This document shows, one piece after another, positions 5,687 to 56,577 of a DNA stretch of 57,429 nucleotides. Each line of letters opens with the position of its first letter. The first letter of the stretch is position 1. A program made the position numbers and the translations under genes. The DNA comes from Verrucomicrobiota bacterium. Its GTDB lineage: Bacteria; Verrucomicrobiota; Verrucomicrobiia; Opitutales; Opitutaceae. The stretch is taken from positions 1 to 57,429 of the forward strand of contig JAPLTR010000271.1 of NCBI GenBank assembly GCA_026398065.1, given 5' to 3'. The notes below the pieces were generated by a model, which was not told where the DNA came from, searched no databases, and saw nothing but the letters and a program-made list of their open reading frames with translations.

Positions 5687-5816
5687 TCCCAATCCCGGGA
5701 TCGTTTTTTCCCGCATTGCACACAACCGGGCCGGCTCCGAACCGCGCAGCTAGTTCATATTATCTTTGATAAACAATGGTTTACGAACTTCTATCCGAGC
5801 TGGCACGCGCATTGCA
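5687..5816 (+). promoter_or_regulatory. Sigma54 promoter module P1: UAS palindrome, A/T tract and -24/-12 element
   Basis: TGGCACgcgcaTTGCA at 5801-5816 has exact GG-N10-GC spacing. The palindrome TCCCAatccCGGGA at 5687-5700 lies 101 nt upstream of the GG. An A/T-rich tract sits at 5752-5790. The ATG of the next ORF is 30 nt downstream. Confidence 0.8.
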
Positions 5817-6192: not shown

Positions 6193-7560
6193 ATGTCAGA
6201 CGCGCCCCCGCATCGCATTTTGATCGCCGACGACCAGGCGGACGTGCTCGAAGCCCTCCGCCTGCTCCTCAAATGCGAGGGCTACGCCACCGAAGTCGTC
6301 AAGTCCCCGGCTGCCGTCATCAAGGCCGTCGAGGCCCGCGACTACGCGCTGGTGCTGATGGACCTCAACTACGCGCGTGACACCACGAGCGGCCAGGAAG
6401 GCCTGGAGCTGTTGCAAAAGCTCGCCGCCATCGACGCGACGCTCCCGGTCGTCGTCATGACCGCGTGGGCCAGCGTCGATGTCGCCGTCGAGGCCATGCG
6501 CCGCGGCGCGCGCGACTTCGTCACCAAGCCGTGGGACAACCCGCGTCTCCTCGCGATCGTCCGCAATCAGATCGACCTCGGCCACGCCGTCCGCGCCTAC
6601 CGCCGCCTCGAGCAGGAAAACCAACTGCTCCGCACGTCCGGCAAATCCGGCCCGACGCTCATCGCGCAGTCCGCCGCGATGCGTCCGGTCCTCGACGTGA
6701 TCGCGCGCGTCGGCCCGTCCGACGCCAATGTCCTCATCACCGGCGAAAACGGCACCGGCAAGGGCCTCGTCGCCCAGGCGCTGCACGCGGTGTCCGCGCG
6801 CGCGGGAAAACCGTTCATCTCCGTCAACATGGGCGGCCTCCCCGAAGGGGTCTTTGAGAGCGAACTCGTCGGCCACGTGCGTGGCGCGTTCACCGACGCG
6901 AAATCCGACCGCGCGGGCCGCTTCGAACTCGCCGACAGCGGCACGCTCTTCCTCGACGAGATCGGCAACATCCCGCTCTCCCAGCAGGCCAAGATTCTCC
7001 GGACGATCGAGACGGGCGAATTCGAGCGCGTCGGCTCGTCGCGGACCTTCCGCGCCAACGTCCGCCTCGTCTCCGCCACCAACTCCGACCTGCAGGCCGA
7101 GGTCGCCGCGGGGAAATTCCGCCAGGACCTCCTCTTCCGCCTCAACACGATCCAGCTCCACCTGCCGCCGCTCCGCGAGCGCCGCGAGGACATCGAGCTG
7201 CTCGCGCAGCATTTCCTGAAGGCGCACGTCGACCGCTACCGGAAACCGATCACGGGCTTCGACGCCTCCGCGCTCGACGCGCTCCGCGCCTATTCCTGGC
7301 CCGGCAATGTCCGCGAGCTCGACCACTCCGTCGAACGCGGCGTGCTCATGGCGCCCGGCAAAGTCGTGCGCGCCGCCGACCTCGGCCTCAACGCCGCGCA
7401 GGCCACGCCACGGCTCGAGGAAATGAGCATCGAGGAAGTGGAGGCGTTTCTCATCAAGAAGACCCTCGCCCGCTGCGACGGCAACGCCCGCAAGGCCGCC
7501 GAGGAGCTCGGCCTGAGCCGCAGCGCGTTTTACCGGCGGCTGGAAAAGTATGGGCTCTGA
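6193..7560 (+). CDS. NtrC-family sigma54-dependent response regulator (enhancer-binding protein)
   Basis: 455 aa from ATG 6193. Receiver domain (ILIADDQADVLE...LVLMDLNY). AAA+ sigma54-interaction domain with GENGTGKG Walker A, a GAFTDA loop and LFLDEIG Walker B. C-terminal Fis-type HTH (ARKAAEELGLSRSAFYRRLEKYGL). The upstream part of the track ORF (5776-6192) is an Arg-rich read-through and is not counted. Confidence 0.9.
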   Translation: MSDAPPHRILIADDQADVLEALRLLLKCEGYATEVVKSPAAVIKAVEARDYALVLMDLNYARDTTSGQEGLELLQKLAAIDATLPVVVMTAWASVDVAVEAMRRGARDFVTKPWDNPRLLAIVRNQIDLGHAVRAYRRLEQENQLLRTSGKSGPTLIAQSAAMRPVLDVIARVGPSDANVLITGENGTGKGLVAQALHAVSARAGKPFISVNMGGLPEGVFESELVGHVRGAFTDAKSDRAGRFELADSGTLFLDEIGNIPLSQQAKILRTIETGEFERVGSSRTFRANVRLVSATNSDLQAEVAAGKFRQDLLFRLNTIQLHLPPLRERREDIELLAQHFLKAHVDRYRKPITGFDASALDALRAYSWPGNVRELDHSVERGVLMAPGKVVRAADLGLNAAQATPRLEEMSIEEVEAFLIKKTLARCDGNARKAAEELGLSRSAFYRRLEKYGL

Positions 7561-7676: not shown

Positions 7677-9026
7677 ATGCCTAAATCCAACCGCAGGTTC
7701 TCCCACGATCAGGTCGTATTTTTCTACGCGCTGCTCGCCGGTCTCCCCTCGGTCGCCGTCGCCATGTATTTCCTCTGGCTGGACGATCCCGCGCCCGCGG
7801 CGAAGATCCAGTGGACGTTCACGCTGCTGATCGCGGGGTTCTGGTTCGGTTTCGCCGCCGCCACGCGCAACCGCGTCGTGCGCCCGCTGCAGACGATGGC
7901 CAACCTCCTCTCCGCGCTGCGCGAGGGCGACTTCGCCGTCCGCGCCCGCGGCGCCCGCCGGGACGAGGCGCTGGGCGACGTGATGTTCGAGATCAACACG
8001 CTCAGCCGCACGCTGCAGGACCAGCGCCTCAACGCCCTCGAGGCCACCGCCCTCCTCCGCACCGTGATGGAGGAGATCAACATCTCCATTTTTGCCTTCG
8101 ACGCCGACCGCAAGCTCCGCCTCGCCAACCAGGCCGCGCAGCTCCTGCTCAACAAGCCCGCCGAGCGCATCCTCGGCCGCGACGCCGCCGAGATCGGCCT
8201 CGCCGACTGCCTCGACGGCGAGCCGACCCGCCTCCTCCAGATCACGTTCCCCGGCGGCACCGGCCGCTGGGGCATGCGGCGCAGCCAGTTTCGCGAGGGC
8301 GGGCGGCCGCACCAGCTCGTCGTCATCGCCGATCTCAGCCGCACGTTGCGCGAGGAGGAGCTGCTCGCGTGGCAGCGCCTCGTGCGCGTCCTCGGCCACG
8401 AACTCAACAACTCGCTCGCGCCGATCAAATCCATCGCCGGCAGCCTCAGCTCGCTCCTCCGCAATCCCAAGCGCGCGCCGGACTGGGAGGACGACATGCG
8501 CAGCGGCCTCGACATCATCGCGTCGCGTTCCGAGAGCCTCGCGCGCTTCATGCAGGCCTACGCGCGCCTCGCCCGCCTCCCCCAGCCCACCGTCGCGCCC
8601 TGCGAGATCACGGACCTCGTGCACCGCGTCGTCGCGCTCGAGCGCCGCCTCCCGGTGCGCGTGCTCGGCGGGCCGAACCTCACGCTCGCCTGCGACGCCG
8701 CGCAGATCGAACAGGTCCTGATCAACCTCGTGAAAAACGCCGTCGAGGCCGCGCTCGAGCAGCGCGCCGAGGGCCAGGCCGACGCCACCGTGCGCCTCTC
8801 GTGGCGCAGGACGGGCAACGTCGCCGAACTCCTCGTCGAGGACGACGGACCGGGCATCGCGCAGACCTCGAACCTCTTCGTCCCGTTCTTCACGACGAAG
8901 CCCGAGGGCTCCGGCATCGGCCTCGTCCTCTGCCGCCAGATCGCCGAGAACCACGGCGGCTCCCTCGCCCTCGCCAACCGCCCCGGCGACACCGGCTGCC
9001 TCGCGACCCTGCGGCTGCCGGCGTAA
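7677..9026 (+). CDS. Sensor histidine kinase (2 TM, minimal external loop, HAMP, PAS-like, HisKA, HATPase)
   Basis: 449 aa. TM1 is VVFFYALLAGLPSVAVAMYFLWL, the loop is DDPAPAAKIQ, and TM2 is WTFTLLIAGFWFGFAAA. H-box LGHELNNSLAPI. ATP-lid boxes NLVKNAVEA, DDGPGI and GSGIGL. Confidence 0.9.
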   Translation: MPKSNRRFSHDQVVFFYALLAGLPSVAVAMYFLWLDDPAPAAKIQWTFTLLIAGFWFGFAAATRNRVVRPLQTMANLLSALREGDFAVRARGARRDEALGDVMFEINTLSRTLQDQRLNALEATALLRTVMEEINISIFAFDADRKLRLANQAAQLLLNKPAERILGRDAAEIGLADCLDGEPTRLLQITFPGGTGRWGMRRSQFREGGRPHQLVVIADLSRTLREEELLAWQRLVRVLGHELNNSLAPIKSIAGSLSSLLRNPKRAPDWEDDMRSGLDIIASRSESLARFMQAYARLARLPQPTVAPCEITDLVHRVVALERRLPVRVLGGPNLTLACDAAQIEQVLINLVKNAVEAALEQRAEGQADATVRLSWRRTGNVAELLVEDDGPGIAQTSNLFVPFFTTKPEGSGIGLVLCRQIAENHGGSLALANRPGDTGCLATLRLPA

Positions 9027-9065: not shown

Positions 9066-11729
9066 CTATCTCTCGATGAACAGCGCCCGCTGGTCGCCGA
9101 TCCCGATCCACTGTTTGGCGAACGGCAGGTAGTTGATCAGCACGCCGTTGTTGCCCTGCATCGCGTTCTTCCGGCCGTCGAACAGCATGAGCGCCCCGTG
9201 GGTGTCGTCGACCGGCACGTAGATCGCAACGAGCGTGTCGATCGTCTCCGGGATGTAGTTCGCCAGCTGCTGGCGTGCGCGCGCCTCCGCGTAGTGCAGT
9301 TGCTCGGGGGTCGGATGAAACTGCCCCTGCACGGTGATTTCAAACGGCTCCTCAATCAGCGAGCGGCGGTAGGGCCACTTGAGTTTGGCATTGCGCAGCT
9401 CCTCTGCCGTCGGCGCGTGCGGCGGACTCACGATCTGCCGCCAGGCGGTGAGATGCATCGCGAGGGACGGGGGATGCCGGATCCCCTGCCGCACGCTCCC
9501 GACCGCGAGCAGGACGCCCAGAACCCAGCCCGCGGCCACCGCGGCCCAGGTCGCCGCCTGGCGCGGGGGAAAGTTCAGCCGCACCTCGTCGGCGGGGATC
9601 GCCACCGTCTTCACCTCGGCGCAGATCCGCTTCAGTTCCGCCGTCGCGGCCGCCAGCGTCGTCGGCTGGCCGGTGGCGATGGCGAGGCGTCGGAGCTCCG
9701 TTTCACAGCGGCCGATCCCATCGCGCCAGGCCCAGGGGGTCGTCTCCGCGATCCAGCGGCCCACTGACACCGCCTGTTCACGGTTGGTCAGCAGCCGCAG
9801 GCCCAGGGCAAGCACGATGGGGGTCAGCCCCAGCAGCACGCCGGTCGGCCCCGGCACGTGGACCGCCAGCAGCAGGATGCCGCCGATGCCCGCCGCCGCA
9901 AACAGCCACCGCCGGCCAAACACCATCGGGCCCGCCTTCATCGCCAGCTCCAGCCGGCCCCAGAACACGATCTTCACCAGGGCCGCGGCCCGCTTCAGCA
10001 GCTCCGCGAGCCGCCGCTGCCGGACCTCTTCATGCGTGAGAAAACCGAACCGCGGCGCCTCCTGCTCCATCCGGGCGAGCACCAAAATCATCACGGGCGT
10101 CGGGTGCGGGACCGAGAAAACCCGCTCCACCGCGGCATCCGTCGTCATCGCATAGCGCGTTTTCATTTTCAGCCGGGTGGCCGTCAGCTCCGTTTCGCCG
10201 GTCAGCGCCAGCCGCCACAACGCCGCCGGATCGCCCAGGTCGGCCGGCTTCACGCCGACCTGTTTTTCAAAAAAGAGCTCCGCATCGAGGACCCATTTCA
10301 CCAGTTCCTCCAGCAGGTCCGCCGCGGTGTGGTCGTAGCGGCGCACCTGGGCCACCAGCGCCGGCTCGGACAGCACGATCAGCTCGGTGCGGAGGGTCGC
10401 AAACTCCTCCGGCCGATCGAGGGCCGCCCGCAGGTTTTCCGGATTCAACGCCTTTCCCTTCCACCGAAAATGCCCCTGCGCCAGGGAGTTTAGCGCGAGC
10501 GTCGCCACCACCAGGTGGCGGAGCTTGGGCTCGACCTTGGTCAGCGCGGTCGACTTCTCCAGTGCGCGCACCGACTCGATTTGCGCCCAGTCCCGGCGGT
10601 GCGTTTCCGATTCCGCCAGAAACTTGGCGAGCGTGCCGGCCTGGTTGGCGGCCAGCGCATGCTCCTCCACCCTCGCGCAATGCTCCGGGCCCAGCAGGCG
10701 GTCGGCCGCCTCCGCCGCGGAATGGCTGCGGCCGTCGATGCGAAAGAAACGTTCGAGCCGCGCGGAGTTGTAGCGTTCGACCGGCAGCTCGCCAGCCAGC
10801 CACGACCGCACGCTCTCCGCCCCCCACCGTCCGTCCATCGAGCTTGTCAGCAGGCCGCGCAACAGCCGCGCCAGCCGCGGCTCGAGCGCCCCCATCAGCT
10901 CCACCGCGCCGGCCCGCAACGTCCCGGTCGCTCGCTCAAACAGGAGCGCCTCGGCCAGCCCGCCCAGACTTTGCGGCAGACCCGCCCGCAGGTCGGGCGG
11001 CACCAGCGTCACTACGTGCCGGCCGATCATGAACTGCTGCACCACCCGGCCCACCGACCACCAGTCCCACGCGAGCAGGGCGGACCCGGGCGAATGCTTG
11101 AACAGCCCGGCCGTCTCCGGCGGCGCGTACAGCGGATCCGCCTCGATCATGATCAGGCCCTTCTGCTCGGTCTCGGTGACCCGGTCCAGTCCCCCCACGA
11201 CAAAGTGCGGGCCCGCCGGTTCCTCCCGGACGAAGATCCAGTCCGCGTTCAGTTGAAAATGCCCCAGTCCCGCGGCGTGCAGCGCCTCGACGGCCAGCGC
11301 CAGCTGCCTCACCAGTTCGGCCGTAACCTCCGCCGTCGGTTCGCTCTGATCCGCCCGCCAGCGCCGCAGCGAAACTCCCGCCACCCCCTCCCAAACCTGG
11401 ACCAGCCCGTCCGCCGTGAGGTGCGACTCGATCGGCCGCTGCCAGTGGGGACACGGGATTGCCCGCAGCCGTTCGAATCTCGCCGTCCGGCCCTTGACGT
11501 CGTCGGCCGCCGCAAACGTGCGCAACAGCACCCCTTCGCCGGTCGTGAGATCGGTCGCCTGATACCAACCGGTCGTCGCGTCCCCCCACACCCCGGACAC
11601 CTGATAGCGCCCGTTCCAACATGCTCCGACCACGACCCGCCCCGCCGCGGGCCCGGGGCGCGAAGAGGGGTCCTTCGCTTCCAGACCGACAGCCCCGGAG
11701 GCGGGGGAATCGATGGTTTCTGAGAGCAT
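9066..11729 (-). CDS. 887-aa membrane protein with an N-terminal degenerate Hanks-type kinase (pseudokinase) domain
   Basis: The kinase-fold landmarks are present but the catalytic residues are lost. VLLRTF replaces VAIK, HAAGLGHFQLNADWIFV replaces HRDLKPxN, GGLD replaces DFG, and YAPPE and WDWWSVGRVVQQFMIG are retained. A long helical middle region follows, then ~3 TM helices (aa ~608-745) and a ~140-aa C-terminal domain of unknown type. Confidence 0.6.
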   Translation of the reverse strand: MLSETIDSPASGAVGLEAKDPSSRPGPAAGRVVVGACWNGRYQVSGVWGDATTGWYQATDLTTGEGVLLRTFAAADDVKGRTARFERLRAIPCPHWQRPIESHLTADGLVQVWEGVAGVSLRRWRADQSEPTAEVTAELVRQLALAVEALHAAGLGHFQLNADWIFVREEPAGPHFVVGGLDRVTETEQKGLIMIEADPLYAPPETAGLFKHSPGSALLAWDWWSVGRVVQQFMIGRHVVTLVPPDLRAGLPQSLGGLAEALLFERATGTLRAGAVELMGALEPRLARLLRGLLTSSMDGRWGAESVRSWLAGELPVERYNSARLERFFRIDGRSHSAAEAADRLLGPEHCARVEEHALAANQAGTLAKFLAESETHRRDWAQIESVRALEKSTALTKVEPKLRHLVVATLALNSLAQGHFRWKGKALNPENLRAALDRPEEFATLRTELIVLSEPALVAQVRRYDHTAADLLEELVKWVLDAELFFEKQVGVKPADLGDPAALWRLALTGETELTATRLKMKTRYAMTTDAAVERVFSVPHPTPVMILVLARMEQEAPRFGFLTHEEVRQRRLAELLKRAAALVKIVFWGRLELAMKAGPMVFGRRWLFAAAGIGGILLLAVHVPGPTGVLLGLTPIVLALGLRLLTNREQAVSVGRWIAETTPWAWRDGIGRCETELRRLAIATGQPTTLAAATAELKRICAEVKTVAIPADEVRLNFPPRQAATWAAVAAGWVLGVLLAVGSVRQGIRHPPSLAMHLTAWRQIVSPPHAPTAEELRNAKLKWPYRRSLIEEPFEITVQGQFHPTPEQLHYAEARARQQLANYIPETIDTLVAIYVPVDDTHGALMLFDGRKNAMQGNNGVLINYLPFAKQWIGIGDQRALFIER

Positions 11730-11848
11730 GCTGCGTTAACCCCAATCGCTCGATTTCCGAACGACTTAAGGCCGATGGTATTTCTACTCTACGGCGCAGC
11801 GGGGCCTTTCCCTCTGAGTAGTCCCGCGCCGTCCGGCTTTCCGACCTG

Positions 11849-11977
11849 TCCCACTTCTGGGAAATCCACGTCCCACCAACGCGGCCTGGATCGCCGACCC
11901 GTTTTCCATCGAAAATTTCTTTCCACTCTTTTCCAACGACTTATCCACCGTCGCATCCCTTGGGCACGACCGCTGCA
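11849..11977 (+). promoter_or_regulatory. Sigma54 promoter module P2 (upstream of the MacA-like gene)
   Basis: GGGCACgaccgCTGCA at 11962-11977 has GG-N10-GC spacing. The palindrome TCCCActtcTGGGA at 11849-11862 lies 100 nt upstream of the GG. AAATTTCT at 11913-11920 sits about 50 nt upstream of the GG. Confidence 0.7.
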
Positions 11978-11998
11978 AACATCCCCGCACACACACAC

Positions 11999-13252
11999 AT
12001 GGACATCGCGCGCCCCGACCAATCCAAGCTCAAGCGGAAGAAACTCATTATCTATATCTCGGTCGCCGTCGTCATCCTCGTCGGCATCACCGTCCTCTTG
12101 GCGCGCCTCAAGCCCGCCGCCCCCACCGTCGAGCGCAACCTCGTCTGGATCGATACGGTGAAGCGCGGCCAGATGCTCCGCCAGGTCCGCGGTCTCGGCA
12201 CCCTCGTTCCCGAGGAGATCCGCTGGATCGCCGCCCGCACCCAGGGGCGCGTCGACAAGATCATCCTCCGCCCCGGCGCGATCGTCACTCCCGAGAGCGT
12301 GATCCTCATGCTCGCCAACCCCGACGTCGAGCAGGCCGCCGCCAACGCCGACTCCCAGCTCAAGGCCGCCGAGGCCGAACTCGCCAATCTCCGCGTCACC
12401 CTCCAGTCCGGCGTCCTCGCCGCCGAATCCGTCGCCGCCAGCGCCAAGGCCGACTACGAAACCTCCCGGCTCCGCTCCGAGGTCAACGAACAGCTCGCCA
12501 AGGACGGCCTCATCTCCGACCTCGACCGCCGCCTCTCCAAGGTCACCGCCGAACAGGCCGCCACCCGCAACGGCATCGAGCAAAAACGCTTCGCCTTCGC
12601 CCAGGACGCCATCGCCCCGCAGCTCGCGGTCAAACAGGCCGAGGTCGACCGCCTCCGCGCCCAGGCCCGCCTCCGCCGCGACGAACTCGAGGCCCTCACC
12701 GTCCGCTCCAGCATGAACGGCGTCCTCCAACTGCTCCCCGTCGAGGTCGGCGCGCAGGTCCAGCCCGGCTCCAACCTCGCCCGCGTCGCCGATCCCACCA
12801 GGCTCAAGGCCGAGATCCGCGTCGCCGAGACCCAGGCCAAGGACATCCTCAAGGGCCAGCTCGCCCAGGTCGACACGCGCAACGGCGTCGTCGAGGGCAC
12901 CGTCGCCCGCATCGATCCGTCCGTGCAAAACGGCACCGTCACCGTCGATGTGCTGATCACCGGCGCCCTCCCGAAGGGCGCGCGCCCCGACCTCTCCGTG
13001 GATGGCACCATCGAGCTCGAGCGCCTCACCGAGGTCGTCTACGTCGGCCGCCCCGCCTTCGGCCAGGAGAAGAGCGAGGTCGGCATCTTCAAGCTCGACG
13101 CCGAGGGCGCCTACGCCACCCGCACCCGCGTGAAGCTCGGCCGCAGCTCCGTGAACACCATCGAGATCGTCTCCGGCCTCCAGCCCGGCGACCGCGTGAT
13201 TCTCTCCGACATGTCGCCGTGGGATTCCAACGATCGCATCAAACTCAACTGA
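11999..13252 (+). CDS. MacA/HlyD-family periplasmic adaptor (membrane fusion protein)
   Basis: 417 aa from ATG 11999. Basic N-terminus plus a TM helix (KRKKLIIYISVAVVILVGITVLLA). Lipoyl/barrel-sandwich motifs (GRVDKIILRPGAIV, MNGVLQLLPVEVGAQVQPG). A long coiled-coil hairpin in between. Confidence 0.85.
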   Translation: MDIARPDQSKLKRKKLIIYISVAVVILVGITVLLARLKPAAPTVERNLVWIDTVKRGQMLRQVRGLGTLVPEEIRWIAARTQGRVDKIILRPGAIVTPESVILMLANPDVEQAAANADSQLKAAEAELANLRVTLQSGVLAAESVAASAKADYETSRLRSEVNEQLAKDGLISDLDRRLSKVTAEQAATRNGIEQKRFAFAQDAIAPQLAVKQAEVDRLRAQARLRRDELEALTVRSSMNGVLQLLPVEVGAQVQPGSNLARVADPTRLKAEIRVAETQAKDILKGQLAQVDTRNGVVEGTVARIDPSVQNGTVTVDVLITGALPKGARPDLSVDGTIELERLTEVVYVGRPAFGQEKSEVGIFKLDAEGAYATRTRVKLGRSSVNTIEIVSGLQPGDRVILSDMSPWDSNDRIKLN

Positions 13253-13444: not shown

Positions 13445-14146
13445 ATGTCCTCGACGAATCCCTCCCTCATCAAGCTCGACGGCGTCACCAAGGTCTTCCT
13501 CACCGACGAGGTTGAGACGCACGCCCTCTCTGGCATCCACCTCGACATCCGCCAAGGCGAGTACGTCGCCATCGCCGGCCCCTCCGGCTGCGGCAAGTCC
13601 ACCCTCCTCTCCATCCTCGGCCTCCTCGACTCCCCGAGCGACGGCACCTACACCCTCCACGGCCGCCCCGTCCAGCACCTCTCGCTCCCCGAACGCGCCC
13701 GCATCCGCAACCGCGAGATCGGCTTCATCTTTCAGTCGTTCAATCTCATCGGTGACCTCACCGTCTACGAAAACGTCGAGCTGCCCCTCACCTACCGCGG
13801 CATGCCCGCCAGCGAGCGCAAGGCCGCCGTCACCGCCGCCCTCGAGAAGGTCGGCATGGGCCACCGCGCCAAGCACCTCCCCTCCCAGCTCTCCGGCGGT
13901 CAGCAGCAGCGCGTCGCCGTCGCCCGCGCCCTCGCCGGCTCGCCCGCCGTCCTCCTCGCCGACGAGCCCACCGGCAATCTCGACTCGAAAAACGGCGACT
14001 CCGTCATGGCCCTCCTCGCCGACCTCCACAAGGGCGGCGCGACCATCGTGATGGTCACGCACGACACCCGCTTCGCCCGCCACGCCGAACGCACCATCCA
14101 CATCTTCGACGGTCGCGTCGTGCAGGAGCAGGTCGAGCAGCATTGA
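13445..14146 (+). CDS. MacB/LolD-type ABC transporter ATP-binding protein
   Basis: 233 aa. Walker A GPSGCGKST, Q-loop, signature LSGGQQQRVAVARAL, Walker B VLLADEPTGNLD, and H-loop VMVTHD. Confidence 0.92.
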   Translation: MSSTNPSLIKLDGVTKVFLTDEVETHALSGIHLDIRQGEYVAIAGPSGCGKSTLLSILGLLDSPSDGTYTLHGRPVQHLSLPERARIRNREIGFIFQSFNLIGDLTVYENVELPLTYRGMPASERKAAVTAALEKVGMGHRAKHLPSQLSGGQQQRVAVARALAGSPAVLLADEPTGNLDSKNGDSVMALLADLHKGGATIVMVTHDTRFARHAERTIHIFDGRVVQEQVEQH

Positions 14147-14214
14147 GCCGCGCGGCTCTGCGCCGCCCGGCGCCCAGGGTCTGATCAGCCCTCGCTTTCC
14201 CTCTTCCCCTTCCA

Positions 14215-16576
14215 GTGCTCTCCGACCTCCGCTTCGCTTTCCGCCAGCTCGCCAAGTCCCCCGGCTTCACCGTCGTCGCCGTCGTCGCCCTGGCCCTGGG
14301 CGTCGCCACCGCGACGACGATGTTCACGTTCTACAACGCGCTCGTCGTCCGGCCGATCCCGTTTCTCCTCCGTCCCCGATTTTAACGACATCCGGCGCAC
14401 GTCGCAGACCCTCGCCAACGCCCTCACGTCTTGGAACCGCACCTACATCCTCGGCACCGGCGAACGCCCGGAGCGCGCCCTCGGCTCCTGGATCACCGCC
14501 GATGCGTTTCAGACCCTCGGCGTCCAGCCCCACCTCGGCCGCCTCTTCCGTCCCGACGAGAGCAAACCCGGCTCCCCGCCCGTCGCGATCCTCAGCTATG
14601 CGCTCTGGAAGCGCTCGTACGGCGGATCGCCCGAGATCCTGAACCAGACCGTCACGCTCAACAACGCCCCGGTCACCGTCGTCGGCGTGATGCCCGAGGG
14701 CTTTGCCTTTCCCGAGCTTTCCCAGCTCTGGCAGCCCTTCCCCGACGACCAGCAGTCGTCCGAAAACGACCGCGGCTCCCACGGCTGGCCGATGTACGCG
14801 CGCATGAAGCCCGGCGTCACGATCGACCAGGTGCAGGCCGAGCTCGACACCCTCGCCGTCCGCCTCGAACAGGACCACCCGAAGACCAACAGCGGCCTGC
14901 GCTTCCGCGCGCTGCTCGTCCACGAGGAGGCCGTGCGCGACGAAAAGCTCGCCCTCCGGCTCATGATGGGCGCGGTCATCGCCGTCCTCCTCATCGCCTG
15001 CGGCAACGTCGCCAACCTCCTCCTCGCGCGCGCCGCCAGCCGCACGCGCGAGATCGCCATCCGCGCCGCCCTCGGCGCCGGCCGGCTCCGGCTCTTCGGC
15101 CAGCTCCTCACCGAGAGCCTCCTGCTCGGGCTGTGCGGCGGCGTCGCCGGGCTCATGCTCACGTTCTGGCAGATCGACTTCGTCCTGGGTTTCATCCCGA
15201 TCGAGATCCCGTTTTGGATCCGCTTCGACCTCGACTGGCGCGTGCTCACCTTCGCGCTCGTCGCCACCCTCGGGTCGAGCCTGCTCTTCGGCCTCGTCCC
15301 CGCGCTCCAGCTCTCCCGCCCCGACCTCGCCCATGAGCTCAAGGACGGCGCCCGCGGCGGCACCGGCTCCGGCCGCTCCCGCCGCTTCCGCAGCTACCTC
15401 GTCGTCGCCCAGCTCGCGCTCACCCTCGTCCTCCTCGTCGTCGCCGGCCTGATGACCCGCAGTTTCCTCCACCTGCAAAACACCGATCCCGGCCTCGATC
15501 CCCGCGGCGTCTTCACCTTCCGCACCGGCATCCCGCAGACCATCGAGCGGGACGAAAAGGTCTGCGCCAAATTCTTCGCGACCGCCGAACAGCGCCTGCG
15601 CGAGATCCCCGGCGTCGAGCAGGCCGGCTTCATCAGCTACCTCCCGGTCGCCAACAACTCCAACTACCACGGCTTCACCCTCGAGGGCCGCCCCGAGGCC
15701 CCGCCCGGCCAGAATCCCCACGCGCTCTTCCGCGTCGCCACACCCGGCGTCTTCCCGGCGCTGCGCATCCCCCTGCGGCGCGGCCGGCTCTTCGATGAAC
15801 GCGACCGCGCCGACAGCCCGCCCGTCGCCCTCGTCAGCGAAGCCTTCGTCCGCCAGCATTTCGCCTCCGAGGATCCCCTCGGGCGCCGCCTCTCCCTCGA
15901 GGAGCAGAAGGACGGCGAGCCGAAACGTTACGCCACCATCGTCGGCGTCCTCGGCGACATCGTCCAGCGCCCCACGGCCAAGGAACCCGAGCCATCCATC
16001 TGGATGGCGGCCGCCCAGAAACCCGAGTATTTCATGAACGCCGTCATGCGGGTGCAGGGCGATCCGGCCTCCTACCAACAGGCCGCCAAGGACGCCGTGG
16101 TCGCCGCCCGCGCCGGCATCCCCCTCTACAATCCCGCTCCGCTGACCAAGATCGCGAGCGACGCGATGTGGTCCCAGCGGTTCTTCGGCGGACTCTTCGT
16201 GGGCTTCGCCGGTGTCGCCCTCTTCCTCGCCGCCCTCGGCATCTACGGGGTCATGGCCTACTCCGTCTCCCAGCGCACCCAGGAGATCGGCGTCCGCATG
16301 GCGCTCGGCGCCGAGCCCGGGGTCGTCGTGCTCATGATCCTGAAGCAGGGACTCCTGCTCGTCGCCATCGGTCTCGCCCTTGGTTTCATCGGCGCCTGGA
16401 TCACCGCCCAGTTCCTCGCGAGCCTCCTCCACGGCATCGAACCCCACGATCCGCCCACGTTCGGCTGGGTAACTGTGATCCTGATCGGCGTGGCCTGGGT
16501 GGCCTGCTGGCTTCCGGCGCGACGGGCCGGCGCGCTGAGCAGCCGCTGGCGTTCGCGCGGCGTCAGCCGGCCATGA
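14215..16576 (+). pseudogene. ADOP-type duplicated FtsX permease, paralogue 1: 5' deletion/frameshift and non-canonical 3' end
   Basis: GTG 14215 gives the family N-terminus (M)LSDLRFAFRQLAKSPGFTVVAVVALALGVATATTMF...RPIPF, then a TAA at ~14384. The family sequence resumes in the +1 frame at ~14366 (SVPDFNDIRRTSQTL...), with roughly 20-25 residues missing. The C-terminus ends LPARRAGALSSRWRSRGVSRP instead of the family ending RRAxRVDPMxALRxE. Confidence 0.7.
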
Positions 16577-16619
16577 AAGGCAAACGCCTGCGCGCTGCCT
16601 GTGTAGGTCCACATCGCCG

Positions 16620-16832
16620 TCAGAGCCCTGCGGCCGACAACTCGCGGTCCGTGCGTTCAAAATCCGCCCGCGAAAATTTCCTCCCTGCGTCCATCTCGCG
16701 CATGAGCATGCTCACGCGTGACCGTCGCGCCGCCGCTTGCGGCTCCGCCTGCTCGCGCAAAAACTCCGCGAGCTCCAGTTTTTCAGCCGCAGTCAGTGCC
16801 TCGGCCGCTTTCTTCATTTCGGCGAGCGACAT
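16620..16832 (-). CDS. Small antitoxin-like protein (addiction-module-component-like), orphan
   Basis: 70 aa: MSLAEMKKAAEALTAAEKLELAEFLREQ...EMDAGRKFSRADFERTDRELS. It resembles the short helical 'putative addiction module component' antitoxins. It lies antisense inside the permease operon, and no intact toxin gene follows. Confidence 0.35.
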   Translation of the reverse strand: MSLAEMKKAAEALTAAEKLELAEFLREQAEPQAAARRSRVSMLMREMDAGRKFSRADFERTDRELSAAGL

Positions 16833-16912
16833 GCTGTCACCATAGCCGCCCACCCCTCTTCGTCAATCCACCACCCCCTCGCCGCGCGTTGCCCGTTGCT
16901 CGCTCCGTCCCC

Positions 16913-19266
16913 GTGCCCGACCTCCGCCACGCCTTCCGCTCCCTCGCCCGCACCCCCGGCTTCACCGTCGTGGCGGCGCTGACGCTCGCGCTCGGCATCG
17001 GGGCCTCCACCGCGATCTTCTCCGTCGTCCACGCCCTGCTCCTCTCGCCCCTCCGCTACGGCGATGCCCGCCCCCTGGTCCAGCTCCGCTCCTCGCACCC
17101 CCAGCAGGGCTTCGCCGGTCTCGCCCCCGCCACGGTCATGGAGATCGCGACCACCGCGCAATCCTTCGAGACCGTCGCGGCGCAGACTTACTACTACTAC
17201 AACCTCACCAAGATCGGCACCGCCGCCCGCATCACCGGCCTCCAGGCCACCGCCGACTATTTCAAACTCTGGCAGGTGGCCCCGCTCCTCGGCCGCACGT
17301 GGAACGCCGACGATTGCCGTGCCGCCAGCCCGCCCGTCGTCGTCCTCTCCGAACAGATCTGGCGCAAATACTACGCCGCCAACCCCGGGATCCTCGACCA
17401 GCCCATCACCATCGACGACGTCGCCGTGACCGTCATCGGCATCATGCCCGCGTCCTTCCAGGATCCATGGGGCAACGGCGGGCTCTGGCGTCCGATCGCG
17501 ACGGACGGCGACGCTCCGCGCGACCGCAGCTCCCGCTACTGGAGCCCGTTCGCGCGGCTCAGGCCCGGCGTCACCCTCGCGCAGGCCAACGCCGAGCTCG
17601 CCACCCTGGCCGCCCGTCTCAGTGAGACGTATCCGGAAAACTATCGCGGCTGGACGCTCGTCACGGGCGACCTCCAGCGCGCCGTCGTCGGCGACTACCG
17701 CACCGGCCTACTCGTCATCCTCGGCGCCGTCGGCTGCGTCATGCTCATCACCTGCACCAACGTCGCCGGCCTCAACGTCGTGCGCGCCGCGGCCCGCCGC
17801 AAGGAGCTCGCCGTGCGCATCGCCCTCGGCGCGTCCCGCGGCCAGCTCCTCGGCGAACTCCTCGCCGAGAGCCTGCTCCTCGCCCTGATCGGCGGCGTCG
17901 GCGGCGTGCTGCTCGGCAGCTGGGGCATCGACGCCCTCCTCGCCACCCTCCCCGGTGGCGGCGGCATCCCTCGCGCCGACGAGATCGCCCTCAACGGCCC
18001 CGTGCTGGCCGCCGCCCTCCTCCTCACCCTCGTCACCGGTCTCGTCTTCGGCCTCGCCCCGGGCTTCACCGCCGCGCGCGTCGACGCCAACGACGCGCTC
18101 AAGGCCACCGCCCGCTCCTCCGCCCATCCCGCCGTGCGGCGGGTCCGCTCCATCCTCGTCGTCACCGAGATCGCCCTCGACGTCTTCCGAGACGACGACA
18201 CCGGTGAGATGCCAGCCGTGTGCTTTCCCTGACCGTCTCCCTCTCCGACCAACGCTACAAGACCCCCGCGCAGCGCCTCGATTTCTACCACCGCGCCCTC
18301 ACCGAAGTGGCCGCCGTGCCCGGCGTCGCCGCCGCGGGCTTCACCAACACGTCGCCCTTCCGCTGGGGCATTCCCGTCACTCTCGTCCCGGTCGGCCGCG
18401 ACGGCACGGTCGCCGAGGCCAATGTCCCACAGACCTACTACGACTCCGTCAGCGCCGACTACTTCCGCGCGGCGGGCATTCCGCTGCTGTCCGGCCGGCT
18501 CTTCGACGCTTCGGACCGGGCCGGCGCCAAGCCCACGGTCATCCTCAGCGAGACCACCGCCCGCCGCCTTTTCGACACCGCCGATCCGGTCGGTCGCGAG
18601 GTCGCCAGCGCCGCCAACCCCGCCTCGCGTTTCGAGGTCGTCGGCGTCGTCGGCGACGTCCGTCGCCTGGGCCTCTCCAGCACGCCGCCGCCCCAGGCCT
18701 ATCGCTCGCTCGACCAGCGCCCCACCGCCTTCGCCACGCTCATGGTGCGCACCACGCTTCCGCCCAACACCCTCGCCAAGTCCGTGACCGCCGCCCTCGC
18801 CCACGTCGATCCCGACACGCCCATTTCCGAGGTGTCCGCCATGGACGCGGTGGTCAGCCGCACGGTCACCCAGCCCCGGCTCTACGTGATCCTCTTCACG
18901 GTCTTCGCCCTGCTCGCCCTGCTCCTCGCCGCCATCGGCCTGTACGGCCTGGTCGCCTACAGCATCGCGCAGCGCACGCGCGAATTCGGCATCCGCGCCG
19001 CCCTCGGCGCCAGCCCCCGCGAGGTCCGCACCCTCGTCCTGCGCGAGGGCCTCCTCCTCGTCGGCGTCGGCCTCGCCCTCGGTTTCGTCGGCGCCCTGGT
19101 CGCCACGCGCTTCCTCGCGGAAATGATCACCGACACCTCCGTGCACGACCCGGTCGTCTTCGTCGTGGTCCCGCTCGTCCTCGCCGCCACCGCCCTCGCC
19201 GCCTGCCTCATCCCCGCCCGCCGCGCGATGCGCGTCGATCCGTCCGTCGCCCTGCGGACGGAGTAG
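16913..19266 (+). pseudogene. ADOP-type permease, paralogue 2: internal deletion/frameshift removing the first TM helix of the second FtsX half
   Basis: GTG 16913 gives (M)PDLRHAFRSLARTPGFTVVAALTLALGIGASTAIFS. The frame ends at 18232 after ...ILVVTEIAL-DVFRDDDTGEMPAVCFP*. The family sequence resumes in another frame from ~18208 (DASRVLSLTVSLSDQRY...) and runs to the canonical end RRAMRVDPSVALRTE*. About 24 conserved residues (ALVLLxGAGLLxRSF..VDPGF) are absent. Confidence 0.7.
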
Positions 19267-19305
19267 CGCGCAGTCTCAAACCACCTCTCACGGCTCGCTC
19301 GCCGC

Positions 19306-19340
19306 CTACTCGCTACTCACTACCCGCTACTCGCTACTTT
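19306..19340 (+). repeat. 5 x 7-bp tandem repeat leader (CTACTCG CTACTCA CTACCCG CTACTCG CTACTTT)
   Basis: Read directly. It is followed by CTCCCC and ATG 19347. Confidence 0.9.
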
Positions 19341-19346
19341 CTCCCC

Positions 19347-21764
19347 ATGTCCGACCTCCGCTCCGCTTTCCGTACCCTGCGAAAGACCCCCGTCCTCTCG
19401 CTCGTCATCATCCTGTCGCTCGCCGCCGGCATCGGCGCCAACACCACCATCTTCAGCTGGCTCAACAGCGCCGTCTTCCACCCGCTCCCCGGCGTCACCA
19501 CCGATCTGATCGCCCTTGAGGCCCGCAACGCCGCCGGCACCTATCCCGGCACCTCGTGGCTCGAATACCGCGATCTCGTGGAACGCCTGCCCTCGTTCTC
19601 CGGCCTCGCCGCCCAGCGTCCGCGCACCTTCTACCTCGGCGACAACGAGCGCGGCGAACGCCTCTGGGGCGAATTCGTCTCCGGCAATTTCTTCGAGGTC
19701 CTCGGCGTGCATCCCGCCCGCGGCCGGTTCTTCCGCCCCGACGAGGCCACAAACCCCGGCGGCGCGCCCGTCGCCGTTATCTCCGATAATTTCTGGCGCC
19801 GTCATTTCTCCGGCTCGGCCGAGGCCATCGGCCAGACCATCAAGCTCAACAACCGTCCGCTCACCGTCATCGGCATCGCCCCGCCCGGCTTCGCGGGCGC
19901 GTTCAACGCCCTCGGCTTCGACGTGTGGATCCCGCTCACGATGTCGTCCGAGCTCATGCCCGCGAGCCGTGAGCTCACCGACCGCGACACCCGCGCCTAC
20001 ATCCTCCTCGGCACGCTCAAGCCCGGCGTCTCCCGCGCCCGGGCCGAGGGTGAGGTCGCCGCCGCCGCCCGCTCCCTCGCCGCCGAACACCCCGGCACCA
20101 ACGACGGCATCCGCTACGAACTCCTGCCGCTCTGGCGCACCCCGCGGGGCGGCGCGATCCTCAGCGGCGCGCTCGCCACCCTCCAGTTGTTCGCCGTCCT
20201 CATCCTCGTCATCGTCTGCGTCAACACCGCCAACCTCCTCCTCGCCCGCGCCTCCGTCCGTCGCCGCGAGATGGGCATTCGCCTCGCCATCGGCGCCGGT
20301 GCCGGCCGCATCATCCGGCAACTCCTCACGGAGAGCGTCCTCCTCGCCCTCCTGGGCTCCGCCCTCGGCCTGCTCCTGGCCCTCTGGGGCGTCGACGCCA
20401 TCCGCCACATCCCCGTCCCGACCAACATGCCCGTGCGTCTCGGGGCCGAACTCGACTGGCGCGGCCTGCTCTTCGCCGTCGGCACCGGAGCCGCCAGCGG
20501 CCTGCTCTTCGGTCTCGCCCCCGCCCTCCAGCTCGCGCGCTCGGATGTGCAGCACGCCCTCCGCGGCGGGCGCGGGACGCTCTCCGGCCGCAGCCGTCTC
20601 CGCGATTTCCTCGTCGGCACCGAGGTCGCCGTCGCCCTGGTCATCCTCGTGCTCGCCGGGCTCTTCCTGAAGAGCTTCCGCAACGCCCAGACCGTGGACG
20701 CCGGCTACTCGGCCGACCGCGTCCTCCTCGCGTCCGTCGATCTCGTCGGCCGAGGCTACAGCCGGGCCACAATGCGCACCTTTCTCCGCGACGCCCAGGC
20801 CCGCCTCGAACAGATTCCTGGTGTTGAGCGCGCCGCCGCCGCCAACACCCTGCCACTCGATGTCCGCGGCGCGCCGAAATCCGCGCTCACCATCGATGGC
20901 GCTCCACGCACGCCCGGCGACACCGCCCAGGTTCTCTTCTACACCGTCACCCCCGGCTACTTCGCGACCATGGGCATCCACGTGGTCAATGGCACCGACC
21001 TCGCACCCCTGGATCAGGAGAAACGCACGCCGGACGCCGTCATCAGCGAGGAAATGGCGCGCCGCTTCTGGCCCGGTGTCTCGCCCCTCGGCCATCATTT
21101 CCGCCTCAGCGAGCAGGACGACGACTACGAGGTCGTCGGAGTCGCCCGGGAGAGCAAATACGAGAGCCTCGCCGAGCGCCCGCAGGCCGCCGTGTGGCTC
21201 ACCGCCCGCACGGGCGCGATCTTCACCCCCGTACTCCACGTCCGCGCCCGCAGCGGCGACCCGCTCGCGCTGCTCACCCCGATGCGCGCCGCCCTGCGCA
21301 CCCTCGATCCCGAGCTCGCGCTCTACGATGGCCGCACGCTCGCCCAACATATCGACAACAACCTCTTCCTCCAGCGCGTCCCCGCGCAGATGCTCAGCCT
21401 CCTCGCGCCTCTCGCCCTCCTGCTCGCCGCCATCGGCCTCTACGCCGTCCTGGCCTACACGGTCGCCCAGCGCACCCAGGAGATCGGCGTCCGCCTCACG
21501 CTCGGCGCCACACCCGCCTCCGTCGTCGGCCTGATCGTGCGCGAGGGCATGCAGGTCGTCCTGTTCGGCGCCGCCGCCGGCTGGCTCGTCGCACTCGCCC
21601 TCGGCTACACCTTCTCCACCCGGTTCGTCGGCGTCTCTCTCGGCGACCCGGTCATCTACGGCGGCATCCCCCTCCTCCTCCTCGCCGTCGCCGCCCTCGC
21701 CTGCTGGTTCCCCGCCCGCCGCGCCGCCCGCGTCGACCCGATGATCGCGCTGCGTGCAGAGTAG
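19347..21764 (+). CDS. ADOP-type duplicated FtsX/MacB permease, paralogue 3 (intact)
   Basis: 805 aa from ATG 19347. MSDLRSAFRTLRKTPVLSLVIILSLAAGIGANTTIFS... Two FtsX-type 4-TM modules, each with a large periplasmic domain. Ends RRAARVDPMIALRAE*. Confidence 0.88.
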   Translation: MSDLRSAFRTLRKTPVLSLVIILSLAAGIGANTTIFSWLNSAVFHPLPGVTTDLIALEARNAAGTYPGTSWLEYRDLVERLPSFSGLAAQRPRTFYLGDNERGERLWGEFVSGNFFEVLGVHPARGRFFRPDEATNPGGAPVAVISDNFWRRHFSGSAEAIGQTIKLNNRPLTVIGIAPPGFAGAFNALGFDVWIPLTMSSELMPASRELTDRDTRAYILLGTLKPGVSRARAEGEVAAAARSLAAEHPGTNDGIRYELLPLWRTPRGGAILSGALATLQLFAVLILVIVCVNTANLLLARASVRRREMGIRLAIGAGAGRIIRQLLTESVLLALLGSALGLLLALWGVDAIRHIPVPTNMPVRLGAELDWRGLLFAVGTGAASGLLFGLAPALQLARSDVQHALRGGRGTLSGRSRLRDFLVGTEVAVALVILVLAGLFLKSFRNAQTVDAGYSADRVLLASVDLVGRGYSRATMRTFLRDAQARLEQIPGVERAAAANTLPLDVRGAPKSALTIDGAPRTPGDTAQVLFYTVTPGYFATMGIHVVNGTDLAPLDQEKRTPDAVISEEMARRFWPGVSPLGHHFRLSEQDDDYEVVGVARESKYESLAERPQAAVWLTARTGAIFTPVLHVRARSGDPLALLTPMRAALRTLDPELALYDGRTLAQHIDNNLFLQRVPAQMLSLLAPLALLLAAIGLYAVLAYTVAQRTQEIGVRLTLGATPASVVGLIVREGMQVVLFGAAAGWLVALALGYTFSTRFVGVSLGDPVIYGGIPLLLLAVAALACWFPARRAARVDPMIALRAE

Positions 21765-21860
21765 TTTTTGCCACGGATTGCACGCCCTAAGGGACTTCCT
21801 CGCTCCGCTCGATCTCCACTGTGCCGCGAAGATTTGCTCATCTGATGGGCGCAGCTCAGA

Positions 21861-22250: not shown

Positions 22251-22379
22251 TCCCATTTCTGGGATGACGACGTTCCATCGTCGGACGCGCCGGCGCGCCC
22301 GTCCCGGCTTGGCTAAATTTTTAAGCGTTGCCCCGCCGGGCTTTGCCGCGCGACCCCGCCCCCGGGCACGCCCTCTGCA
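22251..22379 (+). promoter_or_regulatory. Sigma54 promoter module P3 (upstream of permease paralogue 4)
   Basis: GGGCACgccctCTGCA at 22364-22379 has GG-N10-GC spacing. The palindrome TCCCAtttcTGGGA at 22251-22264 lies 100 nt upstream of the GG. AAATTTTT at 22315-22322 sits about 50 nt upstream of the GG. Confidence 0.7.
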
Positions 22380-25012: not shown

Positions 25013-25072
25013 CCTCCGAAATCGTTCTCTTTCCTCGTTCTCTTAATCTTTCTCCTCCCCCTTTTCCCGCGC

Positions 25073-25128
25073 CACCATTCGTCATTCCCCTCCAATCGAA
25101 AATCGAGAATCCAAAATCGAAAATTCCC
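25073..25128 (+). repeat. 8 x 7-bp phased leader: CACCATT CGTCATT CCCCTCC AATCGAA AATCGAG AATCCAA AATCGAA AATTCCC
   Basis: Read directly. The A/T-rich 35-bp part (25094-25128) recurs at 27647-27680 with one mismatch. Confidence 0.9.
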
Positions 25129-25141
25129 CCCGCCGGCCCTC

Positions 25142-27568: not shown

Positions 27569-27586
27569 CGATCACCAACCAGCCGT

Positions 27587-27614
27587 CTGCATTCGACCTT
27601 CGTCATTGGTCATT
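27587..27614 (+). repeat. 4 x 7-bp tandem repeat (CTGCATT CGACCTT CGTCATT GGTCATT)
   Basis: Read directly. Same NNNCATT family as 25073, 30145, 35070 and 40634. Confidence 0.85.
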
Positions 27615-27646
27615 TCCCCTCCCGCAACCACCCCGCGGCCCCGCCG

Positions 27647-27680
27647 AATCGAAAATCGAGAATCCCAAATCGAAAATTCC
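27647..27680 (+). repeat. A/T-rich heptad element AATCGAA AATCGAG AATCCCA AATCGAA AATTCC abutting the ATG
   Basis: 33/34 identical to 25094-25127. Directly precedes ATG 27681. Confidence 0.9.
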
Positions 27681-56071: not shown

Positions 56072-56199
56072 TCCCAAAAGTGGGAAATCCGCATTCCACA
56101 AACGAACCCCCAGCCGCCATCCGCTCCTTTCATGTAAATTTCTAGTCATTGCTAATCATCCCCTTAAACAGAATCGCCCGCTACGGCACAGCCGTTGCT
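56072..56199 (+). promoter_or_regulatory. Sigma54 promoter module P4
   Basis: CGGCACagccgTTGCT at 56184-56199 has GG-N10-GC spacing. The palindrome TCCCAaaagTGGGA at 56072-56085 lies 99 nt upstream of the GG. AAATTTCT at 56136-56143 sits about 49 nt upstream of the GG. ATG 56228 is 29 nt downstream. Confidence 0.75.
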
Positions 56200-56227: not shown

Positions 56228-56494
56228 ATGAAAACCTTCCCGCTGACTTCCGTGTTTTTCGCCGCCTCACTGCTCCTGCCCCTCCTCGGTGGCGATACGT
56301 CCGATTGCTCGGCGGCCGTGTCCGCGCTGAAATCCGTCGCGGCCCGCGCCGGAATGGCCCGCGCCGAGTCCGCGCCCGCCAAGGCCCCTCCGGCCCTCGC
56401 GCCCGAGACTGCCCGGCCGCCGGCCGCCGCCGCGCCACGCGCCGAGGCCCCGCGCCCCGCCCGCCGCGACCGCCCCGCCCACCGCTTCATGTAA
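56228..56494 (+). CDS. Small (88 aa) secreted Ala/Pro/Arg-rich protein, first gene behind P4
   Basis: MKTFPLTSVFFAASLLLPLLGG... looks like a signal peptide. Third positions are G/C-rich. Its position matches that of ORF 5846 behind P1. I recognised no family. Confidence 0.4.
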   Translation: MKTFPLTSVFFAASLLLPLLGGDTSDCSAAVSALKSVAARAGMARAESAPAKAPPALAPETARPPAAAAPRAEAPRPARRDRPAHRFM

Positions 56495-56577
56495 GGCCCA
56501 CGCACGCTCCCCGGCTTCTTCCCGCGTATTCTCGTCATCACCTTTCCCGCCCGCTGCTCCCGTCCGCCGTCCGCCCC

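Follow-up and report, generated by a model that had tools for sequence, protein, structure and literature searches.

The 57,429-nucleotide contig JAPLTR010000271.1 of a Verrucomicrobiota bacterium of the family Opitutaceae (assembly GCA_026398065.1), referred to below as the window, has a G+C content of 68% and carries, upstream of a gene for a MacA-like periplasmic adaptor, a conserved regulatory module designated P2. The sequence features of P2 indicate that it is very probably an enhancer-dependent sigma-54 promoter driving an exporter operon composed of macA, an ABC ATPase gene and ADOP-family permease genes, and that it is one of at least four promoters built on the same plan in the window. 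This view is carried by the elements themselves, by their conservation, by their fixed and helically phased spacing and by their restriction to a small number of gene classes.

All elements of P2 lie on the plus strand. The 14-bp palindrome TCCCACTTCTGGGA (TCCCA-N4-TGGGA) at 11849–11862 represents the putative activator site 1, centred at about −132.5 from the predicted transcription start; its TCCC-N6-GGGA framework is near-invariant in 55 P2-class orthologues. The putative activator site 2, at 11871–11884, is a degenerate repeat of site 1 (TCCCACCAACGCGG) whose centre, at about −110.5, lies 22 bp or two helical turns downstream. An A/T tract, AAAATTTCTTT, follows at 11912–11922, then an IHF-like core, TTCCAACGACTTA, at 11931–11943, which matches seven of the nine specified positions of the consensus WATCAANNNNTTR when counted by hand. 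The sigma-54 −24/−12 element GGGCACGACCGCTGCA (GGCAC-N5-CTGCA) occupies 11962–11977; its GG (11963–11964) and GC (11975–11976) are 10 nt apart, and 10 of the 12 positions of the sigma-54 consensus TGGCACG-N4-TTGCW are matched. From the usual geometry of sigma-54 promoters we infer a transcription start at 11988, 12 nt past the C of the −12 element. The short leader proposed by an earlier sequence-only reading of this DNA is thus borne out: about 11–12 nt separate the predicted start from the ATG of macA at 11999, and the leader, about 11 nt long, lacks a Shine-Dalgarno sequence. It contains a (CA)6 repeat (11988–11999). In some relatives the stretch between the −12 element and the start codon is lengthened by short tandem repeats (CACTCT and CTCTCCG units), as in locus L009 upstream of macA and in locus L010 past an ADOP-class promoter near 10354.

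The palindrome and the −24/−12 element occur together four times in the window, each time on the plus strand and in front of genes. Besides P2 (palindrome from 11849, −24/−12 element from 11962, palindrome-to-GG distance 114), these are P1, P3 and P4. P1 precedes the regulator operon and has its palindrome at 5687–5700, site 2 at 5709–5722 and the −24/−12 element TGGCACGCGCATTGCA at 5801–5816 (distance 115). P3 spans 22251–22379, with the palindrome from 22251 and the −24/−12 element from 22364 (distance 114). P4 spans 56072–56199 and includes site 1 (56072–56085), site 2 (56094–56107), the A/T block AAATTTCT (56136–56143), the IHF-like core AATCATCCCCTTA (56154–56166) and the −24/−12 element CGGCACAGCCGTTGCT (56184–56199), with a palindrome-to-GG distance of 113. 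A regular expression for the palindrome-to-promoter composite found these four arrangements, whereas 300 dinucleotide shuffles of the window gave 0.05 ± 0.24; chance therefore does not explain the arrangement.

Conservation and anatomy of the module

A genome scan with the MacA-like protein retrieved 80 related loci, in which the MacA-like proteins are 65–87% identical in Opitutaceae, about 60% in other Verrucomicrobiota and 55–60% in Acidobacteriota and others, which agrees with an origin of the window in an Opitutaceae bacterium. The sequence-only reading had recognized a sigma-54 module in front of the adaptor gene, and this prediction is well supported: each of its elements is found at its place, and the palindrome and −24/−12 element stand together, in fixed geometry, directly upstream of macA in 49 of the 55 Opitutaceae orthologues for which at least 200 nt of upstream sequence were available. 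In the six exceptions, macA is located inside a different operon or gene string. The −24/−12 consensus of the orthologues is ctGGCACr-N4-nTGCAAa, which in most of them lies 30–53 nt upstream of the ATG.

The search for the composite covered both strands of 1.8 Mb, of which 1.3 Mb came from macA loci and 0.49 Mb from loci retrieved by means of the P4 ATPase. With few exceptions, the matches are located upstream of orthologues of macA, of the activator operon, of ADOP genes or of the P4 ATPase gene (ABC4). The 91 composites obtained, the window's four included, were classed by their downstream gene, the few that had no assignable one being left out: 55 precede macA, 13 the operon of a small open reading frame (ORF) and the activator, 12 ADOP genes and 11 ABC4. 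The 13 promoters of the P1 class are those of the window and of 12 related loci. The genes for the activator and its kinase adjoin macA in most Opitutaceae loci, and in many relatives the module starts only about 40 nt past the kinase stop codon.

Phylogenetic footprinting of these promoters defines the anatomy of the module. Site 1 has the consensus cgTCCCAyT...GGGA, in which the outer four positions on either side (TCCC/GGGA) are near-invariant, and the innermost pair of the palindrome varies uncompensated (A..C in many orthologues). This combination is the pattern of a protein-binding site and not that of an RNA helix. Site 2 is a weaker copy found invariably 22 bp downstream of site 1 in all classes. 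In the P2 class, TCCC at +22 to +25 and CG at +31/+32 are conserved; the P4 class has TTCC-N5-CGGA at an equal offset, and locus L023 a full palindrome.

Between the putative activator sites and the promoter, AT content rises to 0.74–0.80 at −50 to −41 from the −24 GG, compared with about 0.35 nearby, and runs of six A/T peak at −51/−50 (91 promoters, four classes). A CAN-N4-TTR motif starts at −29 to −27 from the GG in 40 of the 91 promoters, any other offset being found in fewer than four, and TTA is conserved at −21 to −19. By hand count, the match to the IHF consensus is eight of nine positions for P4, one more than for P2. The A/T tract and the IHF-like core together are likely to form a DNA-bending site.

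The distance from the palindrome to the −24 GG is 112–115 in 73 of the 91 promoters, 123–125 in 14 and 104 in one; no promoter has a distance of 116–122. Such steps amount to one turn of the helix, which is what one would expect of an activator that has to face the polymerase. The putative enhancer consists of tandem dyad-symmetric sites at about −132.5 and −110.5, phased with the promoter, and falls within the range of 80–150 bp upstream that characterizes the upstream activating sequences of NtrC-family regulators.

Outside Verrucomicrobiota, the strict regular expression derived from Opitutaceae gave no match in the Acidobacteriota loci. Reading of the upstream regions in loci L058–L079 (Acidobacteriota and other metagenome-assembled genomes) revealed a related palindrome, GTCC(C/G)-N5-6-GG(A/G)AC, upstream of macA. 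It is located 89–91 or 111–113 nt upstream of TGGCA(C/T), distances that correspond to the positions of site 2 and site 1, respectively. The −12 element of these loci is degenerate or weaker (TTTC, TGTC, TTGA). In Acidobacteriota, the activator and kinase genes follow the ABC genes on the same strand, within the macA-ABC string. These similarities suggest that the whole circuit is common to several phyla, Verrucomicrobiota and Acidobacteriota among them.

Candidate activator and alternative explanations

The window proteins were annotated by Pfam and NCBIfam scans. The operon preceded by P1 encodes a response regulator of the NtrC/AtoC family, a sigma-54 activator (6196–7560, plus strand; REC, Sigma54_activat with E = 8.6e-62, and HTH_8), and a histidine kinase (7677–9026, plus strand) with two transmembrane helices, HAMP, PAS and HATPase_c. 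The activator of the window and each of its 35 orthologues have GAFTDA as the sigma-54 contact loop, a variant listed as compatible with activation (PMC4641369), and Verrucomicrobia are reported to possess RpoN (PMC3372290). This adjacent two-component activator is the best candidate for the protein that binds the palindromes, since the module stands in front of the activator's own operon, both here and in 12 related loci, and since the activator–kinase pair stays beside macA and the ABC genes in Opitutaceae and even in Acidobacteriota. The position of P1 in front of the regulator operon implies autoregulation. Naming the activator AtoC, PrsR, NtrC or ZraR was considered and rejected: it shares their domain architecture and represents an unnamed subfamily, its scores falling below the cut-off of each NCBIfam equivalog (AtoC, 393 bits against 714; PrsR of the PEP-CTERM-box system, 373 against 503; NtrC, 373 against 559; ZraR, 356 against 760). 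Consequently, no function can be transferred from any of them.

The following scenario would account for these features. The two-component system, itself under the control of a P1 module, would respond to its signal by phosphorylation of the activator by the kinase. Activator dimers would then fill two sites that look to the same side of the helix, namely TCCC-N6-GGGA near −132 and its degenerate copy near −110. A bending protein of the IHF/HU type might occupy the A/T tract and the CAA-N4-TTA motif (about −76 to −45), and the resulting bend would loop the activator oligomer onto the sigma-54 holoenzyme at GGCAC-N5-CTGCA. ATP hydrolysis would open the promoter, allowing transcription from near 11988, 11 nt before the macA ATG. 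P3, with its ADOP permeases, and P4, with a small secreted protein and a second ABC ATPase, would be co-regulated with P2. The inducing signal is probably envelope or toxic-compound stress, because the cargo of the regulon consists of exporters.

Several features of P2 and its presumed activator weigh against this interpretation. One flanking T is off in each half of the −24/−12 element, with G for T before the GG and C for the first T of TTGC. An 11-nt leader devoid of a ribosome-binding site is odd by enterobacterial standards. The IHF-like core is matched at only seven of nine positions, and CAN-N4-TTR occurs in 40 of the 91 promoters and not in all of them. The activator does not reach the curated cut-off of any named NCBIfam equivalog, and its assignment to the palindromes is putative, coming from linkage and autoregulation. 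As for other types of promoter, a sigma-70 promoter for macA was rejected: the plus strand has no such site in 11650–12100, and the sole match is on the minus strand inside macA.

Could the palindromes be operators of some other regulator, a repressor or a distant activator, with the adjacency of the two-component genes a mere coincidence? Genomes of this kind encode many sigma-54 activators, and the adjacent one matches no named equivalog. However, the operon of the activator itself is headed by the module, in 12 related loci as well as in the window, the activator–kinase pair adjoins macA in most Opitutaceae loci and is fused into the macA-ABC string in Acidobacteriota, and the fixed, helically phased distance to the −24 element is needed by an enhancer but not by a repressor operator; we therefore regard this explanation as improbable. 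Far less credible still is the idea that a promoter farther upstream reads through the blocks as a transcribed leader or RNA element, for instance a riboswitch or a hairpin that terminates the preceding kinase operon. TCCCA-N4-TGGGA could indeed make a 5-bp hairpin, and the short distance from the kinase stop codon to the module in many relatives would suit a terminator or leader. Against this, no Rfam match was obtained at E ≤ 1, the fold z-score of −0.27 is no better than that of shuffles, a terminator-like site was not found, and the variation of the palindrome, with an uncompensated innermost pair and outer four positions that never vary, is that of a protein site. Moreover, the blocks stand upstream of a conserved −24/−12 element.

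The enhancer-dependent sigma-54 promoter thus remains the preferred reading of P2, and a further question concerns its kinship with P4. The sequence-only reading pointed to four blocks that the two promoters share beyond the core, and all four are present in the window. TGGGAAATCCAC at 11858–11869 has its sole other match in the window in TGGGAAATCCGC at 56081, CCACCAACG at 11873–11881 of P2 corresponds to CCACAAACG in P4, and AAATTTCT, which forms part of the P2 A/T tract, is found at 11913–11920 and again at 56136–56143, each copy 64 nt away from the T that opens the palindrome. The block proposed for the −12 region, (C/T)TGC(A/T)AAACATC, is literally present in P4 (TTGCTAAACATC), whereas P2 reads CTGCAAACATC, with AAACATC 1 nt closer to the GC. 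The position of about −50 assigned to AAATTTCT is correct when counted from the −24 GG, but from the predicted start the block lies at about −75 to −68. Alignment across relatives separates the blocks further: CCAC(C/A)AACG, which belongs to site 2, and the A/T tract are conserved, but neither the AAATCC(A/G)C spacer nor the CATC past the −12 element is kept in orthologues of P2 or of P4, including the closest P4, that of OZ245769.1. Nor are the conserved blocks peculiar to the two exporter promoters, since site 2 and the A/T tract occur in all four classes, P1 to P4.

It is unlikely that P2 and P4 derive as paralogues from a single ancestral promoter, whether duplicated together with the exporter genes or homogenized by gene conversion, so that their similarity would be due to descent and not to shared function. 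In a gapped alignment from the palindrome to the −24 element, preferred because one anchor is offset by 1 nt, P2 and P4 score 52/100, compared with 34.7 ± 2.8 for shuffles and 38.3 ± 4.4 (maximum 54) for 1589 non-orthologous promoter pairs of the regulon. This score places them in the top 0.6% of the pairs, is the highest of the six window pairs and equals that of a true pair of P4 orthologues, the window and OZ245769.1 (51); in addition, the 8-nt AAATCC(A/G)C spacer is common to both promoters even though no orthologue has kept it. The figure of 0.6% nevertheless becomes about 0.04 after correction for six window pairs, and P2 × P4 pairs as a class are not raised (37.9 ± 4.5 against 38.3 overall). 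In OZ245769.1, the genome of the best P2 orthologue and the closest relative from which both promoters were retrieved (its P4 ABC ATPase is 88% identical to that of the window), the two promoters score 42, which is background. The claim that they are homologous units therefore finds weak support in the window and none in this relative. The matches also cluster in columns conserved among P2 orthologues, namely site 2 and the bend site (odds ratio 6–7.5, p 0.004–0.008), and the 1-nt offset of AAACATC runs counter to simple copying. An ungapped comparison, later replaced by the gapped one, had rated P2–P4 as ordinary (43/112, with 22% of pairs at least as high) and below P2–P3 (48/112) and P3–P4 (46/112). 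Judged from these comparisons, P2 and P4 appear to belong to one regulatory design, as do P1 and P3, while a special common origin of the two is weakly supported.

Genes around the promoters

The operon driven by P2 would begin with the MacA-like adaptor gene (11999–13252, plus strand; HlyD_3 and HlyD_D23, RND_mfp subfamily), followed on the same strand by ABC1, a gene for an ABC ATPase of the MacB/LolD type (13445–14146). The macA-ABC1 synteny is kept in nearly all loci. Permease genes of the ADOP family (MacB_PCD plus FtsX) come next (14185–19266, plus strand), one of them frameshifted near 14370 and another split into 16718–18232 and 18220–19266. A run of further ADOP permease genes follows P3, from 22490 to 30095 and beyond on the plus strand. 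Permeases after P2 and P3 score 694 and 761 bits, respectively, against TIGR03434 (ADOP), above its cut-off of 622. In the first ADOP gene after the P2 ATPase (14185–16576), about 66 N-terminal residues are in one frame and the rest in another, and a further ADOP gene (30229–32022/31235–32641) also appears split. These interrupted genes could be pseudogenes, assembly errors or real frameshifts. The overlapping long ORFs on both strands of the 19266–21860 region gave no Pfam match. The gene for a 110-residue protein before P3 (21861–22193, plus strand), which ends 57 nt before the P3 palindrome, carries a TfoX_N domain (E = 1.7e-21); a PadR-type regulator beside the ADOP genes was thereby rejected.

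A divergent ORF on the minus strand (9066–11729) starts 119 nt from the P2 palindrome, in agreement with the close spacing remarked upon in the sequence-only reading, where it was called a pseudokinase. The label is reasonable: the 887-residue product has a weak protein-kinase match corresponding to a degenerate kinase domain in which GHFQ (GHFQLNAD) replaces the HRD motif and the aspartate is gone. It also contains hydrophobic segments and a long uncharacterized C-terminal part. Co-regulation of this gene with macA is not supported, since none of the 80 related loci contains a homologue and no credible −24/−12 element faces it; the only GG-N10-GC matches on the minus strand reach 6 of 12 positions and were rejected. 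Only in this genome does the gene stand between the kinase gene and P2; in most related loci the kinase gene is directly followed by P2. The pseudokinase ORF thus looks like an insertion unrelated to the module.

Small ORFs accompany the promoters. The first gene after P1 (5846–6124, plus strand) encodes a small conserved membrane or secreted protein ending in RLAA, and it is kept in 11 of the 13 P1-class loci. Its family combines an N-terminus resembling a signal peptide with a second hydrophobic helix and an SDY(S/T)R motif; the tail varies, and the C-terminus is nearly always (R/P)LAA, resembling the LAA end of the ssrA degradation tag. The product may act alongside the sensor kinase as an accessory or unstable partner. 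In four loci of Chthoniobacterales/Spartobacteria (L056, L057, L063 and L066), the module lies about 470–500 nt before macA, and an ORF of 95–104 residues is found between promoter and macA as the first gene of the operon; its product, again a small membrane protein, begins with MKPT, contains S(Q/R)DYF and has one C-terminal hydrophobic helix.

The P4 operon (56228–57240, plus strand) consists of a small secreted ORF (56228–56494) and the second ABC ATPase gene (56578–57240). The small protein, which ends in PAHRFM, carries a signal peptide and a low-complexity stretch rich in Pro and Ala, and its C-terminus is conserved as PAH(L/R)FM (variants FLFM, FFM and SMM). Pfam and NCBIfam gave no match for it; counterparts are found in L082–L085 and in L161 (5527–5862) and are missing at more distant P4 loci. 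In relatives, the P4 ATPase gene is followed by a gene for a TolC-like outer-membrane factor (OEP, PF02321), as in L161 (6857–8335) and in 14 loci among L082–L101, and this gene would complete a tripartite pump with the P2 adaptor. The window ORF after the P4 ATPase (57272–57429, MNRSFPRLFSW...) differs from it and runs off the end, and no OEP gene is visible in the window.

The kinase (7677–9026) has two hydrophobic helices about 10 residues apart, which form an external loop before HAMP-PAS. With such close helices, the kinase has no periplasmic sensor domain. This topology is that of the ‘intramembrane-sensing’ kinases; in other bacteria, accessory membrane proteins or transporters are the real sensors for kinases of this type.

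Comparison with known systems

The combination of a sigma-54 promoter with an upstream enhancer and a bend site is textbook knowledge, and the known regulation of macAB, for example by PhoPQ in Salmonella, is sigma-70 dependent. In the literature searched we found no account of the motif, of sigma-54 control in Opitutaceae, of a link between MacB and sigma-54 or of the regulation of ADOP permeases, and these taxa do not feature in the main text of Francke et al. 2011. The TCCC-N6-GGGA motif in two copies 22 bp apart, the Opitutaceae regulon that it defines and the link of a two-component sigma-54 activator to ADOP/MacA exporter genes thus appear undescribed. Exporter genes of this kind are abundant in soil and freshwater Verrucomicrobiota and in Acidobacteriota and are without known function or regulation. 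With the motif, the full regulon can readily be probed by computation, and cultured Opitutus, Lacunisphaera and Oleiharenicola lend themselves to experiments.

A close parallel in promoter architecture is glnAp2 of Escherichia coli, where two tandem sites bound by NtrC dimers lie on one face of the helix, more than 100 bp upstream of the sigma-54 core, and the regulator operon is autoregulated. The P2 module resembles it in its −24/−12 element, its two tandem same-face sites more than 100 bp upstream and its apparently autoregulated two-component activator. It differs in the site sequence (TCCC-N6-GGGA instead of TGCACCA-N3-TGGTGCA), in the spacing of the sites (22 bp instead of about 32 bp), in the presence of an A/T tract and IHF-like core between enhancer and promoter and in its cargo, exporters rather than nitrogen assimilation. 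The activator, at 373 bits against a cut-off of 559, is not an NtrC orthologue. Pu of Pseudomonas putida, controlled by XylR, and nifH of Klebsiella, controlled by NifA, are IHF-assisted sigma-54 promoters at which the position of the activator depends on helical phase. They share with P2 the order of activator sites, presumed bend site (WATCAANNNNTTR-like core plus A/T tract) and −24/−12 element, as well as the helically phased placing of the activator sites; the IHF match is, however, partial and putative here (7/9 in P2, 8/9 in P4). XylR binds a ligand and NifA is redox-controlled, whereas the activator encoded in the window would be a phosphorylation-controlled response regulator.

AtoC (393 bits, cut-off 714) and ZraR (356 bits, cut-off 760) rank first and fourth, respectively, among the best sequence matches of the activator. 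The ZraSR system of E. coli responds to envelope stress and activates the gene of a small periplasmic protein along with its own operon. Small secreted or membrane ORFs as first genes after P1 and P4 recall ZraSR-zraP, which like AtoSC-atoDAEB is a sigma-54 two-component regulon of E. coli. In contrast to ZraSR and AtoSC, the kinase has no periplasmic sensor domain, and the targets are components of type VII ABC exporters. The exporter resembles MacAB-TolC in its HlyD-family adaptor, MacB-type ATPase and MacB_PCD/FtsX domains, and through the TolC-like gene of relatives, but ATPase and permease are encoded by separate genes and the permeases are duplicated (ADOP) and numerous.

Finally, the BceRS-BceAB systems of Firmicutes detoxify antimicrobial peptides and combine a near-loopless two-helix kinase with adjacent ABC genes of the FtsX/MacB superfamily that it controls. 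The kinase encoded in the window has the same two-helix, almost loopless form and lies next to transporter genes of this superfamily. In this case, the regulator is of the NtrC type and acts with sigma-54, instead of an OmpR-type regulator with sigma-A, the kinase has an added PAS domain, and the permeases, in contrast to BceB, are duplicated MacB_PCD/FtsX proteins of the ADOP family with a separate HlyD adaptor. Kinase topology fits a Bce-type module and the types of regulator and permease do not, which places the system outside this group. Sensing through the transporter, in the manner of Bce, is pure speculation. By analogy, one may tentatively imagine, though we rate the idea as rather doubtful, a regulon extending across Verrucomicrobiota and Acidobacteriota in which a kinase lacking a periplasmic sensor domain and an unnamed NtrC-type activator would run type VII ABC exporters via sigma-54, with transporters and/or small proteins feeding the stimulus to the kinase. 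The parts of the regulon would comprise the MacA adaptor, two ATPases, many ADOP permeases, a TolC-like channel in relatives and the small proteins ending in LAA and PAHxFM. If true, such a Bce-like regulon would offer, for the first time, a way into the regulation and function of the large uncharacterized ADOP family.

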